A stretch of DNA of 36,941 nt from a virus (lineage: Duplodnaviria > Heunggongvirae > Uroviricota > Caudoviricetes), in the IMG/VR virus record IMGVR_UViG_2563366846_000004, one strand, 5' to 3'. Of the stretch, positions 4,958-31,667 are shown in pieces. Every line of letters begins with the position of its first letter. The first letter of the stretch is position 1. Both the position numbers and the translations under genes were made by a program. Under the pieces are notes generated by a model, which saw only the letters and a list, made by a program, of their open reading frames with translations, made no database searches and was not told where the DNA came from.

Positions 4958-5566
4958 TCACTCTCTTTTTCCCTGAAGCATGGCAGCGTGGCAGGCATCC
5001 TCTACGCCCTTAACTGCATCTGCGCAGTAGTTATAGCGATTGCATTCCACTAACTTCTGCCTGAGATTTTCAATTGCTTGCGCGACATCAGCCTGTATTA
5101 CAGGAACTGGCGGAACGGCTGTCTGCTGCTCTCGAACGTCATTAGTCGCTATCGGTTCTGCTGCCAACTGACTGGCATATTTGTTAATGGTAACGATAAG
5201 CTCTTGCTCAGCCTCATCCAGACAATCACCGATACCTCGCCTGTCGCCGTCAAAATCATCGAAATCAGCACGAACTCTGGCAAATTTCAGGATTGCGGAC
5301 AACACCTCACCAGGAATTACCGGAGAGTTGGTTGACGTTTCCGAAATTTCCCGAAAATTATTGGTTGACGAATTCGCGTTTTCCCGAAAGTTTCCGGCAT
5401 GAAGCATAGCCGCGCGGCAGGCGTTCCAGCCTCTCACCTCTGCAATAGCGGCAACAGCATCGACCGCGTACATGCTAAGAGGGTTAGGCATTGGTTTTTC
5501 TTCAGGTACTACTGGCACTGGCTTGGCATATATAGCGGCTGAACATACCAACCCTTTGATAACCAA
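4958..5566 (-). CDS. Ea-like early-left protein, 202 aa; possibly the C-terminal part of a frameshifted gene with 5509..5784
   Basis: Contains NSPVIPGE motif encoded by an 18-bp stretch identical to one in 2051..2622; overlaps 5509..5784 by 58 nt in another frame. Confidence 0.4.
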   Translation of the reverse strand: MVIKGLVCSAAIYAKPVPVVPEEKPMPNPLSMYAVDAVAAIAEVRGWNACRAAMLHAGNFRENANSSTNNFREISETSTNSPVIPGEVLSAILKFARVRADFDDFDGDRRGIGDCLDEAEQELIVTINKYASQLAAEPIATNDVREQQTAVPPVPVIQADVAQAIENLRQKLVECNRYNYCADAVKGVEDACHAAMLQGKRE

Positions 5567-19547: not shown

Positions 19548-20630
19548 TTAGAACTGATAAACCAGACCTACAGCGACGATGTCGTCGGTATCAATACCAG
19601 CTGTTTTGGTAAACTTACTATCGTCAATTAAGTTGATTTTGTAATCAACAAAAGTGGACATGTTTTTATTAAAGTAGTAAGTAGCACCGACATCGACATA
19701 CTTGACTAAGTCTCGGTCACCATGAACACCAAGGTCTTTACCTTTTGACTGAAGGTAAGCAACAGATGGACGCAGACCGAAGTCAAACTGATATTGTGCT
19801 ACTGCTTCAAAGTTTTGTGCTTTGTTTGCAATATGGTTATTACCAAAAACGGTCATATTCTGAGTTTCAGAATATGTGGTAGCCAGATAGATATTGTTCG
19901 CATCATATTTCAGGCCTGCAGCCCATACTTCCGCATTTTTGCCGGAGGCATTGAATTTGCTCTTACCATAGGCGACCTGACCGTCAGTGCGATCTGATTT
20001 AGCATAGGTTGCACCCACGCCGAATCCTTCATACTCATAAGTAGTGGAGAAACCGAAACCATCACCATTGGCTTCAGTTACGTCAGTGCGGTCATTTTTA
20101 CCCTGATACTGAGCAGCAAAGTTCAGGCCATCGACCAGACCAAAGAAGTCGTTGTTACGATAAGTTGCAACACCAGTAGTGCGACCAGTCATGAACACAT
20201 CTGTTTGGGTCCAGGTATCACCACCGAATTCTGGCAGAACGTCAGTCCACGCACCGATGTCGTATGCTACACCGTAGTTACGGCCGTAATCGATTGAGCC
20301 GTAATCACCAAATTTCAGGCCTGCAAATGCAAGACGGGTTTTGTCTTTGGAAGAACCTTGAGATTCAGCACGGTTGCCTTTGAATTCATATTCCCACTGA
20401 CCGAAACCAGTCAGTTGATCGTTGATTTGGGTTTCACCTTTGAAGCCAAGACGGGCATAAGTAGTATCACCATCATCTGCATCATTAGAGGAGAAGTAGT
20501 GCTTGGCATTAACTTTCCCGTATAGATCCAGCTTGTTACTGTCTTTATTATAAATTTCAGCTGCCTGAGCAGACATCGCCATCAGTACTGATGCAGCTAC
20601 AGCAGAAATTGCCACTGTTAATTTTTTCAT
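19548..20630 (-). CDS. nmpC: Outer-membrane general porin, OmpC/NmpC/Lc family, about 360 aa precursor
   Basis: Signal peptide [23 protein letters not shown], beta-barrel porin sequence ending in a C-terminal Phe (VYQF); sits between Q and the lysis cassette on the opposite strand, as nmpC does in DLP12; AT-rich upstream region. Confidence 0.85.
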
Positions 20631-20949
20631 TGTACGCCCTTTTTTTGAACTATTATTAAAAAATGATGTCACTGCGCGATAAATATTCATCTAATCAATG
20701 TGATTATTTCAAGATGTAAGTTTTAGTTTCTCATTTAATTTGTGAAGTAGATCTCTATTTTTATCTGAACCTTTTCTATCTAATCCTATTCATGGCTCTT
20801 GTCTGAACAAAAATAAATCTATTAGCTAATTTATATTAATGGCACTTATTTATAAGTGCTCTATAATTCTTTAGCTTAATTTAAACAAACTAAAAATAAC
20901 ATCGGAAATTATTAACTGGTTATTTGTTGAAGTTTTCTTATGCATTTGT

Positions 20950-26923: not shown

Positions 26924-27113
26924 ACTGCAGGCGCTGCGTCAGGCGCGCCTTGATTTATTAACCGGTAAACGGGTGGTGTCTGTCCAGAAAGATGGTCGCA
27001 GAATTGAATATACGGCGGCTTCTCTGGATGAGCTTAACCGGGCGATCAATGATGCGGAGTCGGTACTGGGGACAACCCGGTGTCGCCGTCGTCCGCTGGG
27101 AGTGAGGTTATGA
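26907..27113 (+). CDS. W: Head-tail joining protein W, 68 aa
   Basis: 68 aa, lambda gpW-like (LTGKRVVSVQKDGRRIEYTAAS). Confidence 0.85.
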   Translation: MVTVAELQALRQARLDLLTGKRVVSVQKDGRRIEYTAASLDELNRAINDAESVLGTTRCRRRPLGVRL

Positions 27114-28702
27114 AACGAACGCCTGTCCTGATTGATGTGAACGGCGTTCCGCTTCGTGAGAGTCTCAGCTACAACGGGGGCGGTGCAGGATTTGGCGGGC
27201 AAATGGCTGAGTGGTTGCCACCGGCGCAGAGTGCCGATGCGGCCCTGCTGCCCGCGTTGCGTCTGGGGAATGCCCGGGCAGATGATCTGGTGCGCAATAA
27301 CGGAATAGCGGCTAATGCGGTGGCTCTGCATAAGGATCACATTGTCGGGCATATGTTTCTGATCAGCTACCGTCCGAACTGGCGCTGGCTGGGGATGCGG
27401 GAGACCGCAGCAAAAAGCTTTGTCGATGAGGTGGAGGCGGCCTGGTCGGAATACGCCGAAGGGATGTTTGGCGAGATCGACGTGGAAGGAAAACGCACGT
27501 TCACGGAATTTATCCGTGAAGGTGTGGGCGTTCATGCGTTTAACGGCGAAATCTTTGTGCAGCCGGTCTGGGATACGGAAACCACGCAGTTATTCCGTAC
27601 GCGTTTTAAAGCCGTGAGTCCGAAACGGGTGGACACGCCTGGACACGGTATGGGGAACCGTTTTCTGCGGGCCGGTGTGGAGGTCGATCGATATGGCCGT
27701 GCCGTCGCGTACCATATCTGTGAGGATGATTTTCCGTTCTCTGGTAGTGGACGATGGGAACGGATCCCGCGTGAACTTCCCACCGGGCGTCCGGCCATGC
27801 TGCATATTTTCGAGCCGGTGGAGGACGGGCAGACCCGTGGGGCTAATCAGTTTTACAGCGTCATGGAACGGCTGAAGATGCTCGATTCCCTGCAGGCAAC
27901 ACAGCTTCAGTCGGCCATAGTGAAGGCGATGTATGCAGCGACGATTGAAAGTGAACTTGATACCGAAAAGGCCTTTGAATATATCGCCGGCGCGCCACAG
28001 GAGCAGAAGGATAATCCGCTTATTAATATTCTGGAGAAGTTTTCCAGCTGGTATGACACGAATAACGTGACACTGGGCGGTGTCAAAATTCCGCACCTTT
28101 TCCCTGGTGATGATCTGAAACTACAGACTGCGCAGGATTCAGACAATGGATTTTCTGCGCTTGAACAGGCGCTGCTGCGGTATATCGCCGCCGGTCTTGG
28201 CGTTTCCTACGAACAGTTGTCCCGTGATTACTCGAAGGTCAGTTACTCAAGTGCCCGCGCCTCCGCCAATGAGTCGTGGCGCTATTTTATGGGGCGGCGA
28301 AAATTTATTGCGGCCCGGCTGGCCACGCAGATGTTTTCCTGCTGGCTGGAAGAGGCACTTCTTCGGGGGATTATTCGTCCGCCACGGGCACGTTTTGATT
28401 TTTATCAGGCGCGATCAGCCTGGTCACGGGCAGAGTGGATTGGTGCCGGAAGAATGGCCATTGACGGGCTCAAGGAAGTCCAGGAATCAGTGATGCGCAT
28501 TGAGGCCGGACTGAGCACGTATGAGAAAGAGCTGGCGCTGATGGGCGAGGATTATCAGGACATTTTCCGCCAGCAGGTCAGGGAATCTGCTGAGCGGCAA
28601 AAAGCCGGACTCTCACGTCCGGTGTGGATAGAGCAGGCGTATCAGCAGCAGATAGCGGAGAGTCGTAGGCCGGAAGAGGAGACAACACCACGTGAGACGT
28701 AA
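27110..28702 (+). CDS. B: Portal protein B, about 530 aa
   Basis: Lambda gpB-like throughout by recollection; ATG 27110 overlaps the W stop (ATGA). Confidence 0.9.
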   Translation: MKRTPVLIDVNGVPLRESLSYNGGGAGFGGQMAEWLPPAQSADAALLPALRLGNARADDLVRNNGIAANAVALHKDHIVGHMFLISYRPNWRWLGMRETAAKSFVDEVEAAWSEYAEGMFGEIDVEGKRTFTEFIREGVGVHAFNGEIFVQPVWDTETTQLFRTRFKAVSPKRVDTPGHGMGNRFLRAGVEVDRYGRAVAYHICEDDFPFSGSGRWERIPRELPTGRPAMLHIFEPVEDGQTRGANQFYSVMERLKMLDSLQATQLQSAIVKAMYAATIESELDTEKAFEYIAGAPQEQKDNPLINILEKFSSWYDTNNVTLGGVKIPHLFPGDDLKLQTAQDSDNGFSALEQALLRYIAAGLGVSYEQLSRDYSKVSYSSARASANESWRYFMGRRKFIAARLATQMFSCWLEEALLRGIIRPPRARFDFYQARSAWSRAEWIGAGRMAIDGLKEVQESVMRIEAGLSTYEKELALMGEDYQDIFRQQVRESAERQKAGLSRPVWIEQAYQQQIAESRRPEEETTPRET

Positions 28703-30197
28703 TCTTTCACACATTATTGCCGCAGCATTCAATGAACCGCTGCTTCTGGAGCCCGCCTATGCGCGGGTTTTCTTTTGCGCGCTCGGGCGCGAGATGGGGG
28801 CAGCAAGTCTTTCGGTACCACAACAGCAGGTACAGTTTGATGCTCCCGGAATGCTGGCTGAAACGGACGAGTACATGGCCGGAGGTAAACGACCGGCCCG
28901 TGTTTACCGGGTGGTGAACGGTATTGCTGTACTGCCGGTGACCGGCACGCTGGTGCACCGGCTGGGTGGTATGCGGCCATTTTCCGGAATGACAGGCTAT
29001 GACGGCATTGTCGCCTGTCTTCAGCAGGCAATGGCGGATAGCCAGGTGCGGGGCGTACTGCTGGACATTGACAGTCCGGGCGGGCAGGCCGCCGGCGCGT
29101 TTGACTGCGCTGACATGATTTACCGCCTCCGTCAGCAGAAGCCGGTCTGGGCACTGTGCAATGACACGGCCTGTTCTGCAGCCATGCTGCTGGCGTCGGC
29201 CTGCTCCCGACGGCTGGTTACCCAGACATCCCGTATCGGCTCCATTGGCGTGATGATGAGCCATGTCAGCTATGCCGGTCATCTGGCGCAGGCCGGTGTG
29301 GATATCACGCTGATTTACTCAGGGGCGCACAAGGTGGATGGCAATCAGTTTGAAGCGTTGCCGGCAGAGGTTCGCCAGGACATGCAGCAGCGGATTGATG
29401 CGGCGCGCCGGATGTTTGCCGAAAAAGTGGCGATGTATACCGGTCTGTCTGTTGATGCCGTCACGGGAACAGAGGCTGCCGTTTTTGAAGGTCAGTCCGG
29501 CATTGAGGCCGGGCTGGCGGATGAATTAATCAATGCGTCGGATGCCATCAGTGTGATGGCCACGGCGCTGAACAGTAATGTCAGAGGAGGCACTATGCCG
29601 CAATTAACTGCAACGGAAGCCGCCGCGCAGGAGAACCAGCGAGTGATGGGGGTCCTGACATGCCAGGAAGCGAAAGGACGTGAACAGCTTGCCACGATGC
29701 TGGCAGGACAACAGGGCATGAGCGTTGAACAGGCCCGGGCGATTCTGGCCGCGGCGGCACCGCAGCAGCCGGTGGCATCCACGCAGAGTGAAGCCGATCG
29801 CATTATGGCGTGTGAAGAAGCGAACGGTCGTGAACAACTGGCGGCAACGCTGGCGGCGATGCCGGAGATGACGGTGGAAAAAGCCCGCCCGATCCTGGCT
29901 GCTTCACCGCAGGCGGATGCCGGACCATCACTCCGTGATCAGATCATGGCACTGGATGAGGCAAAAGGGGCTGAGGCGCAGGCTGAACAGCTGGCTGCCT
30001 GCCCGGGAATGACAGTGGAGAGCGCCCGGGCTGTGCTGGCTGCGGGATCAGGTAAGGCAGAACCGGTCTCTGCATCCACAACCGCCATGTTTGAACATTT
30101 CATGGCGAACCATTCACCGGCAGCGGTACAGGGTGGCGTGGCACAGACGTCAGCAGACGGTGATGCGGACGTGAAAATGCTCATGGCCATGCCATGA
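28692..30197 (+). CDS. C: Head maturation protease C (S49 / ClpP-like), 501 aa, with C-terminal scaffold region
   Basis: Lambda gpC-like protease core by recollection; probable GTG start; C-terminal part carries three tandem copies of a roughly 40-residue motif. Confidence 0.85.
   Translation: MRRNLSHIIAAAFNEPLLLEPAYARVFFCALGREMGAASLSVPQQQVQFDAPGMLAETDEYMAGGKRPARVYRVVNGIAVLPVTGTLVHRLGGMRPFSGMTGYDGIVACLQQAMADSQVRGVLLDIDSPGGQAAGAFDCADMIYRLRQQKPVWALCNDTACSAAMLLASACSRRLVTQTSRIGSIGVMMSHVSYAGHLAQAGVDITLIYSGAHKVDGNQFEALPAEVRQDMQQRIDAARRMFAEKVAMYTGLSVDAVTGTEAAVFEGQSGIEAGLADELINASDAISVMATALNSNVRGGTMPQLTATEAAAQENQRVMGVLTCQEAKGREQLATMLAGQQGMSVEQARAILAAAAPQQPVASTQSEADRIMACEEANGREQLAATLAAMPEMTVEKARPILAASPQADAGPSLRDQIMALDEAKGAEAQAEQLAACPGMTVESARAVLAAGSGKAEPVSASTTAMFEHFMANHSPAAVQGGVAQTSADGDADVKMLMAMP
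29595..30197 (+). CDS. Nu3: Nested in-frame scaffold protein, Nu3-like, 200 aa
   Basis: Internal ATG at 29595 in the C frame preceded by AGAGGAGG with 4-nt spacing; analogous to lambda Nu3 nested in C. Confidence 0.5.
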   Translation: MPQLTATEAAAQENQRVMGVLTCQEAKGREQLATMLAGQQGMSVEQARAILAAAAPQQPVASTQSEADRIMACEEANGREQLAATLAAMPEMTVEKARPILAASPQADAGPSLRDQIMALDEAKGAEAQAEQLAACPGMTVESARAVLAAGSGKAEPVSASTTAMFEHFMANHSPAAVQGGVAQTSADGDADVKMLMAMP

Positions 30198-30233
30198 AGT
30201 CAGTGCTGACCATCAATAGGAGGTTTTTACAAT

Positions 30234-30581
30234 ATGGTGACGAAAACCATCACTGAACAGCGTGCGGAAGTACGTATTTTTGCCGGTAATGATCCGGCTC
30301 ATACCGCCACAGGCAGCAGCGGGATTTCCTCGCCAACACCGGCACTGACGCCCCTGATGCTGGATGAAGCCACCGGGAAACTGGTGGTCTGGGACGGACA
30401 GAAAGCCGGTAGTGCGGTTGGCATACTGGTACTGCCGCTTGAAGGCACAGAGACGGCGCTGACGTATTACAAGTCGGGAACCTTTGCGACGGAGGCAATC
30501 CACTGGCCTGAAAGTGTGGATGAACACAAAAAGGCCAACGCCTTTGCTGGCAGTGCCCTGAGTCACGCGGCGCTGCCGTAA
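30234..30581 (+). CDS. D: Head decoration protein D, 115 aa
   Basis: Lambda gpD-like (NDPAHTATG, TPLMLD, YKSGTF); AGGAGG upstream. Confidence 0.85.
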   Translation: MVTKTITEQRAEVRIFAGNDPAHTATGSSGISSPTPALTPLMLDEATGKLVVWDGQKAGSAVGILVLPLEGTETALTYYKSGTFATEAIHWPESVDEHKKANAFAGSALSHAALP

Positions 30582-30638: not shown

Positions 30639-31667
30639 ATGGGATTGTTTACGACCCGCCAGTTACTCGGTTATACCGAACAAAAAGTTAAATTTCGTGC
30701 GCTGTTTCTGGAGCTGTTTTTCCGCCGTACGGTGAATTTCCATACCGAAGAGGTGATGCTGGACAAAATTACCGGAAAAACGCCGGTGGCGGCCTATGTC
30801 TCCCCGGTTGTTGAAGGAAAAGTGCTGCGTCATCGTGGTGGTGAAACCCGCGTGTTGCGTCCGGGCTACGTCAAGCCGAAACACGAATTTAATTACCAGC
30901 AGGCGGTTGAGCGCCTTCCTGGTGAAGATCCATCTCAACTGAATGATCCGGCTTACCGCCGTCTGCGTATCATTACCGATAACCTCAAACAGGAAGAGCA
31001 CGCGATTGTCCAGGTGGAAGAAATGCAGGCGGTAAATGCTGTGTTGTATGGCAAATACACCATGGAAGGAGACCAGTTCGAGAAAATTGAGGTCGATTTT
31101 GGCAGGTCGACGAAGAATAACATCACTCAGGGTAGTGGTAAGGAGTGGTCAAAACAGGATCGTGACACGTTCGATCCTACACATGATATTGACCTCTACT
31201 GCGACCTGGCCAGCGGTCTTGTGAATATTGCCATTATGGACGGTACCGTCTGGCGTCTTCTGAATGGTTTTAAGCTGTTCCGCGAAAAACTGGATACCCG
31301 TCGCGGTTCAAATTCTCAACTCGAAACGGCAGTGAAAGATCTGGGCGCAGTGGTGTCCTTCAAGGGGTATTACGGCGATCTGGCCATTGTGGTGGCGAAA
31401 ACGTCTTATATAGCAGAAGACGGTATCGAAAAACGTTATCTTCCAGATGGCATGCTGGTTCTGGGGAATACTGCTGCAGATGGGATCCGTTGTTACGGTG
31501 CCATTCAGGATGCTCAGGCGTTGTCCGAAGGTGTGGTGGCCTCTTCCCGTTATCCGAAACACTGGCTGACGGTAGGGGATCCCGCCCGTGAATTTACCAT
31601 GACGCAGTCCGCGCCGCTGATGGTGTTGCCGGACCCGGATGAGTTTGTGGTGGTACAGGTGAAATAA
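30639..31667 (+). CDS. E: Major capsid protein E, 342 aa
   Basis: Lambda gpE-like throughout by recollection (PGYVKPKHE, KLDTRRGSNS, TGDPAREFTM, SAPLM). Confidence 0.9.
   Translation: MGLFTTRQLLGYTEQKVKFRALFLELFFRRTVNFHTEEVMLDKITGKTPVAAYVSPVVEGKVLRHRGGETRVLRPGYVKPKHEFNYQQAVERLPGEDPSQLNDPAYRRLRIITDNLKQEEHAIVQVEEMQAVNAVLYGKYTMEGDQFEKIEVDFGRSTKNNITQGSGKEWSKQDRDTFDPTHDIDLYCDLASGLVNIAIMDGTVWRLLNGFKLFREKLDTRRGSNSQLETAVKDLGAVVSFKGYYGDLAIVVAKTSYIAEDGIEKRYLPDGMLVLGNTAADGIRCYGAIQDAQALSEGVVASSRYPKHWLTVGDPAREFTMTQSAPLMVLPDPDEFVVVQVK

Follow-up and report, generated by a model that had tools for sequence, protein, structure and literature searches.

What does the 3' part of a phage head protease gene encode when one motif occurs in it three times, and how does the number of copies bear on head assembly? 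The question is raised by gene 5 of IMG/VR virus record IMGVR_UViG_2563366846_000004 (Duplodnaviria; Heunggongvirae; Uroviricota; Caudoviricetes), a stretch of 36,941 nucleotides (nt) that we call the window. A reading made from the sequence alone (the sequence-only reading) had proposed that this gene is a homologue of lambda C, that its distal part carries three diverged tandem copies of a motif found once in lambda C/Nu3, and that an internal in-frame ATG starts a nested scaffold gene. On balance, we read gene 5 and the nested gene 6 as the lambda C/Nu3 counterpart of a phage-21-type prophage, with a common tail that probably consists of multivalent protein-binding scaffold modules.

The C-terminal 200 residues of the gene 5 protein contain one module of about 40 amino acids (aa) as three diverged tandem copies, R1 to R3, with coordinates set by a profile of the repeat (Table 1), and the three peptides quoted by the sequence-only reading are all present. 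Pairwise local BLOSUM62 scores between the copies are 100, 84 and 97, against 25–27 ± 5 for 2,000 composition-preserving shuffles (z = 15.8, 10.9 and 13.8). Two profiles of single-copy scaffolds, phrog_8399 and phrog_8940, find three matching stretches each in the tail. The tail is 23% alanine, and neither Tandem Repeats Finder (TRF) nor DNA repeat finders show an array, which could suggest that the repeat merely reflects the composition of an alanine-rich, low-complexity sequence. This explanation is refuted: composition-preserving shuffles never match the scores (z = 11–16), and because 0 of 2,000 reached the observed value the similarity is not due to alanine-rich composition; in addition, the repeat profile recovers the module once in 96 divergent proteins, and a confident fold is predicted for a single unit.

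The triplication is detectable at the protein level only. TRF found no tandem array within 29400–30300, and a DNA repeat search of the same interval returned only fragments of 12–25 nt, of which families D1 and D5 are partly spaced at 141–156 nt, close to the repeat period. No large repeats were found across the whole window. Codon-aligned nucleotide identity among R1, R2 and R3 is 58–66%, with the same codon at only 38–45% of identical residues, and the copies are old at the DNA level.

The module consensus is I..IL..EAKGRE.LA..LA...M.VE.A...LAAAP (about 40 aa), with a core of I-x-x-I/L, an E-A-K-G-R-E loop and then L-A-x-x-L-A...M-T/S-V-E-x-A-x-x-I-L-A-A; R3 has EAKGAE in place of EAKGRE. 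The copies are joined by linkers of Pro, Ala, Ser and Gln. Past R3 the tail opens in a repeat-like manner (FEHFMA, compare DRIMA and DQIMA), holds a third member of DNA repeat family D1 (30092–30106) and closes with a conserved acidic stretch, ...D..LLM.IP; in lambda the single copy is followed by the equivalent DRLMQG. A resemblance to the Pfam family HHH (PF00633) was seen for R3 only, at 13–15 bits against a cut-off of 24, and this sub-threshold match is put down to a helix-capping pattern in common and is not counted as family membership.

The sequence-only reading missed that the locus is nearly identical to phage 21, in which the three repeats are already annotated. Gene 5 has 99.9% nucleotide identity to phage 21 (M81255.1, OL657228.1), and a 12.9-kb head-tail query is 99.8% identical over the 12.7 kb (98%) covered by the phage 21 record. 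Record M81255.1 ('Bacteriophage 21 head gene operon'), which we take to be a submission from the 1990s, annotates gene 5 (AAA32343.1), the nested gene 6 (AAA32344.1) from the base equal to window 29595, a putative gene 6 ribosome binding site (RBS) just upstream, also given in OL657228.1, and three repeat regions named 'Tri1 box', 'Tri box' and 'Tri3 box', each labelled 'function unknown; putative'. The source of this annotation is reportedly the original phage 21 head-gene paper by Smith and Feiss, said to have appeared in Gene in 1993. In the complete phage 21 genome OL657228.1, CPT_21_05 is named 'capsid protease/scaffolding protein' and CPT_21_06 'scaffolding protein'. Gene 5 differs from M81255.1 by 2 nt and 2 aa, both changes being non-synonymous; they lie at window 29652 (V321 against I) and 29809 (A373 against V), in the first helix of R1 and of R2.

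Phage 21 and the window have the same nested start, RBS and three Tri boxes, with no substantive difference between them; unlike the phage 21 record, the window is a prophage copy, with an integrase at 1–1143. The late region of the window also matches phage PhiR57_1 from Escherichia coli ECOR13 at 99.9%. The 603-nt tail occurs in 1,870 of 5,426 complete E. coli genomes, roughly one in three. In 1,864 of them it is covered to at least 80%, with 2,922 places in all, and it is annotated there as 'S49 family peptidase'. The triplication and the nested gene 6 with its RBS are already known for phage 21, and the allele is very common.

Several lines of evidence bear out the proposed identity of gene 5 as a head protease homologous to lambda C. 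The protein matches PF01343 (Peptidase_S49) with 121.6 bits, where the cut-off is 24.9 (E = 3.7e-35), and phrog_53, 'head maturation protease', over its full length (E = 1.6e-228), and it shares 58% identity with lambda C overall. Residues S162 and K214, which align with lambda S166 and K218, are unchanged across 20 diverse homologues and form a candidate Ser-Lys dyad. The gene lies in a lambda-type order of portal, protease/scaffold, decoration and major capsid genes. Given the S49 domain, the phrog_53 match, the identity to lambda C, the Ser and Lys positions and the neighbouring head genes, gene 5 is a C-type prohead protease. Its start overlaps the end of the portal gene by 11 nt (28692–28702), likewise in the phage 21 records, an arrangement compatible with translational coupling. 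Minus-strand and other-frame open reading frames (ORFs) inside gene 5 were set aside as shadow ORFs of a GC-rich gene on the basis of their absence from public annotations.

The nested gene was also predicted correctly. The proposed ATG at 29595 is in frame, has a strong Shine-Dalgarno (SD) site upstream and opens a 200-aa ORF with all three repeats, and gene 6 is annotated exactly there; its product has a mass of 20.5 kDa and an isoelectric point of 4.6. The arrangement AGGAGG-N4-ATG spans 29585–29597. Around the ATG the mRNA is no more structured than its shuffles (z = +0.8), and the predicted minimum-energy fold leaves the SD unpaired. An SD-ATG aligns with this site in lambda (Met309, nt 5342), N15 (Met311, annotated gene 6), phi80 and Gifsy-1 (Met302), and in 77 of 80 IMG/VR relative loci, that is in every intact gene, the other three being truncated. 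AGGAG or GGAGG is kept in all lineages although the encoded GG becomes QE, KE or GE: the residue contexts include RGGTM, TGGTM, KGGNM, SGGRM and LGGNM on the one hand and QENTM, KENTM, GERNM, QEDRM and KEDKM on the other. Since the SD bases persist while the encoded residues vary, selection appears to act on the nucleotide signal and not on the protein. This conservation gives good comparative support for internal initiation at 29595, and we infer that gp6 is made from this start in vivo.

The contrary view, that the internal ATG is idle, only full-length gp5 is translated and the scaffold fragment arises by autoproteolysis, could draw on the reported processing of lambda gpC (PMC3224144), but it is highly improbable given the nucleotide-level conservation of the SD-ATG across lineages with differing residues, the strong and suitably spaced AGGAGG in a part of the mRNA free of structure, and the nested gene being the accepted model in the lambda, N15 and phage 21 annotations. 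Many automatic gene calls in public assemblies have this very Met as their first residue (among them P0002, P0003, P0006, P0019, P0038 and P0039). Two further observations concern annotation. In RefSeq and J02459, lambda nu3 is annotated from nt 5132 (201 aa), an ATG without a Shine-Dalgarno site; the family-conserved SD-ATG of lambda is nt 5342, which gives 131 aa, and gene 6 of N15 and of phage 21 is annotated at the homologous site. A note in the record of phage 434 opens with 'real Nu3 start ...'. The lambda reference start looks like a legacy annotation. Separately, OL657228.1 marks two 'CII binding sites' (ttgyN6ttgy) on the minus strand within gene 6, at 29600–29613 and 29834–29847, which are pattern matches to the consensus only and putative.

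Comparison with related phages places the triplication in context. Lambda C (NC_001416, 4418–5737) has exactly one copy, at residues 364–399, and R1 is its positional counterpart in the alignment; the peptide that the sequence-only reading had given for lambda is correct, and lambda does not carry three repeats. N15 and phi80 likewise carry a single copy each, and Gifsy-1 of Salmonella has three. Lambda C/Nu3 resembles the window in the S49 domain, the Ser and Lys positions, the alignment column of the nested SD-ATG, the module and the order B-C/Nu3-D-E. It differs in a spacer of about 36 residues, rich in Ser, Thr, Ala and acidic residues, between the internal start and the module, which has no equivalent in phage 21, and in a nested product of 131 aa (13.39 kDa) compared with 200 aa. 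The capsid proteins are homologous and of near-equal length by annotated coordinates, 342 aa in the window and 341 aa in lambda; the Phage_cap_E match was run on the window protein only. In N15, where the protease and scaffold are gp5 and gp6, the nested scaffold is annotated at the homologous Met311 with a product of 137 aa, and this protein and phi80 C each contain a single module.

Gifsy-1 STM2605 is like phage 21: it has three copies at the same positions, orthologous copy by copy, and an internal start at residue 302. Its R3 retains the arginine of EAKGRE, which R3 of phage 21 has lost. Between the two phages, positional identity is 68% for R1, 80% for R2 and 61% for R3, compared with 45–56% for paralogues. 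As positional counterparts are more alike than paralogues, the triplication predates the split of phage 21 and Gifsy-1; it arose by ancient tandem duplication in their lineage.

The comparison of repeat number across relatives that the sequence-only reading had proposed gave 1 to 4 copies. Among the 149 nearest representatives at 50% identity, the repeat profile found a single copy in 96 and three copies in P0092, and the other 52, of which many are fragments, had none; with 96 of 149 holding exactly one, a single copy is taken as the widespread state. In single-copy proteins the median distance from the module to the C-terminus is 53 residues. The full-length view comes from this representative search and from the IMG/VR loci, given that a homologue search with the tail returned mostly contig-end fragments, which were used for copy counts and not for full-length statistics. 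Two copies occur as R1 and R3 (L034, P0016 and P0018) and, in P0022, as an R1/R2 hybrid, joined precisely in register, and then R3; L042 is a 451-aa two-copy gene whose length matches a P0022-type loss of one unit. Four copies are found in P0032 and in 538-aa genes (L056–L063), the four being nearly uniform in a 538-aa E. coli lineage, and L066 has two copies inside the four-copy lineage. The three-copy form is the commonest, in 47 of 80 IMG/VR loci. Nested products range from 126–137 aa with one copy to 236 aa with four, and the spacer of about 36 residues between the internal Met and the module seen in lambda is missing from the multi-copy proteins. One further locus, L040, is one base short and reads as 439 aa, which looks like a frameshift or sequencing error.

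Such variation could mean that the extra copies are near-neutral length changes generated by unequal recombination, with one copy sufficient and assembly unaffected by number. The occurrence of one, two, three or four copies among otherwise similar genes fits this view and argues that the number is not critical; the P0022 hybrid and the length of L042 are what unequal crossover predicts, and the missing spacer of the multi-copy proteins may mean that total length outweighs valency. Nevertheless, we consider near-neutrality unlikely, because three positional orthologues are kept between phage 21 and Gifsy-1 at an overall identity of about 60%, every copy keeps its core residues, and the three-copy form dominates, both in the IMG/VR loci and in the 1,870 E. 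coli genomes. The conserved cores and kept orthologues point to purifying selection on each copy, and the retention of all three over a long divergence argues against pure neutrality.

Structure prediction offers a view of what each copy may be. AlphaFold2 (AF2) modelled the whole 200-aa nested protein, with an alignment of 16 sequences, as helices between low-confidence linkers (predicted local distance difference test, pLDDT, 54), and this model was excluded from the fold search. R1 alone (48 aa, aligned with 98 further units) gave a pLDDT of 90.1 and a predicted template modelling score of 0.68, with three short helices at residues 2–8, 17–24 and 31–40. Most of the near-invariant positions are hydrophobic (I, A, A, A, L), and the exposed E-A-K-G-R-E loop between helices 1 and 2 is conserved as well. 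The module is thus predicted to be a small, autonomously folding three-helix domain, and the two models together suggest a scaffold tail of small folded modules on flexible linkers. This agrees with lambda gpNu3, which is reportedly described as intrinsically disordered in the title of Medina et al. 2011. A PDB sequence search with the 200-aa protein gave no match, and sequence, profile and structural-neighbour searches found no natural structural homologue of the module. The sole PDB matches of the 99-unit profile were designed helical-repeat proteins, which were rejected as homologues on account of a generic helix-capping pattern (G-x-S/T-x-E-x-A..IL).

From its homology to lambda C/Nu3, the locus would produce two proteins with a common C-terminus from one frame: a minor 501-aa S49 serine protease bearing the scaffold tail, and a major, abundant 200-aa scaffolding protein made by a translation restart at 29595. 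The shared tail would bring protease and scaffold together into the procapsid, where each module would bind protein and so tether scaffold or protease to the inner face of the capsid shell, to other scaffold molecules, or to both. With its three copies the phage 21 scaffold would be trivalent, and the protease would degrade the scaffold once assembly is done. The module is most probably the protein-binding unit of the tail, with the capsid protein, the portal or the module itself as possible partner, and its valency may affect assembly.

The P22 scaffold gp8 offers an analogy: an elongated, mostly flexible helical protein whose small C-terminal helix-turn-helix domain, with exposed charged residues, docks on the coat protein. 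It differs in that the domain occurs once and the scaffold has its own gene, not fused to a protease, and the likeness is one of analogy only; no sequence similarity to the P22-type coat-binding domain was detected, and that domain is absent among the structural neighbours of the module.

In lambda, two-hybrid interactions of Nu3 with E, with C and with itself have been described, and Nu3 is required for portal incorporation (PMC3224144). Self-association and the portal requirement would also suit a somewhat improbable alternative in which the module serves for oligomerisation or portal recruitment, acting in scaffold networks or at the dodecameric portal, and capsid binding lies in the extreme C-terminal tail. 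The segment past the last repeat is indeed also conserved (F-D/E-x-F-M ... D..LLM.IP) and could target the capsid, but the same study also reports the Nu3-E interaction.

Table 1 Positions in the window of gene 5, gene 6, their parts and the neighbouring head genes
Feature	Position	Strand	Basis or remark
Portal gene (Phage_portal_2)	27080..28702	+	Upstream of gene 5; Pfam
Gene 5 (lambda C homologue), prohead protease and scaffold tail	28692..30197	+	GTG start, 501 aa; ORF list
S49 peptidase core, residues 146–293	29127..29570	+	Pfam
Internal Shine-Dalgarno AGAGGAGG	29583..29590	+	Arg-Gly-Gly codons; 4-nt spacer to ATG 29595–29597
Nested in-frame gene 6 (lambda Nu3 analogue), scaffolding protein	29595..30197	+	In-frame start list; annotated CDS AAA32344.1 / UMO75421.1
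Repeat 1 (R1), residues 315–358	29634..29765	+	Hidden Markov model (HMM) 79.7 bits; includes annotated Tri1 box
Tri1 box	29662..29765		M81255.1
Repeat 2 (R2), residues 368–407	29793..29912	+	HMM 82.5 bits; includes annotated Tri box
Tri box	29802..29912		M81255.1
Repeat 3 (R3), residues 415–455	29934..30056	+	HMM 80.6 bits; includes annotated Tri3 box
Tri3 box	29943..30056		M81255.1
C-terminal tail past R3, residues 456–501	30057..30194	+	Alignment of 16 tails
Head-decoration gene (HDPD)	30234..30581		Downstream of gene 5; Pfam
Major capsid gene (Phage_cap_E)	30639..31667		342 aa; Pfam

Elsewhere in the window, the integrase on the minus strand is of lambda type (Arm-DNA-bind_1 and Phage_integrase), and as it lies at the window start, the window begins close to one end of the prophage. 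The first base of the phage 21 genome record falls at about window 24287 in the alignment, and this places cos there. A porin gene of 380 aa (19548–20690, minus strand; Pfam Porin_1, E = 2e-151) lies within the prophage, on the upstream side of the lysis/cos region, and appears to be a phage-borne outer-membrane porin as in some lambdoid phages.

As a discovery the triplicated tail carries little weight, and its value is practical, given that the module is still annotated as of unknown function. The present analysis adds the copy-number series, shows that the internal SD is conserved at the nucleotide level and gives a confident three-helix prediction for the module. A more speculative extension, which we think doubtful, is that module number (1 to 4) is an evolvable valency dial that sets how many subunits or scaffolds are bridged, and so the scaffold-to-capsid stoichiometry or the assembly kinetics, with multiple copies compensating for the lost spacer. 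If this were true, the natural alleles with one to four copies and the R1/R2 recombinant would form a ready series for scaffold valency in the assembly of a T=7 shell. Together, the predicted three-helix fold of the module and its natural variants with one to four copies make lambda-type scaffolds convenient for questions of binding and valency.
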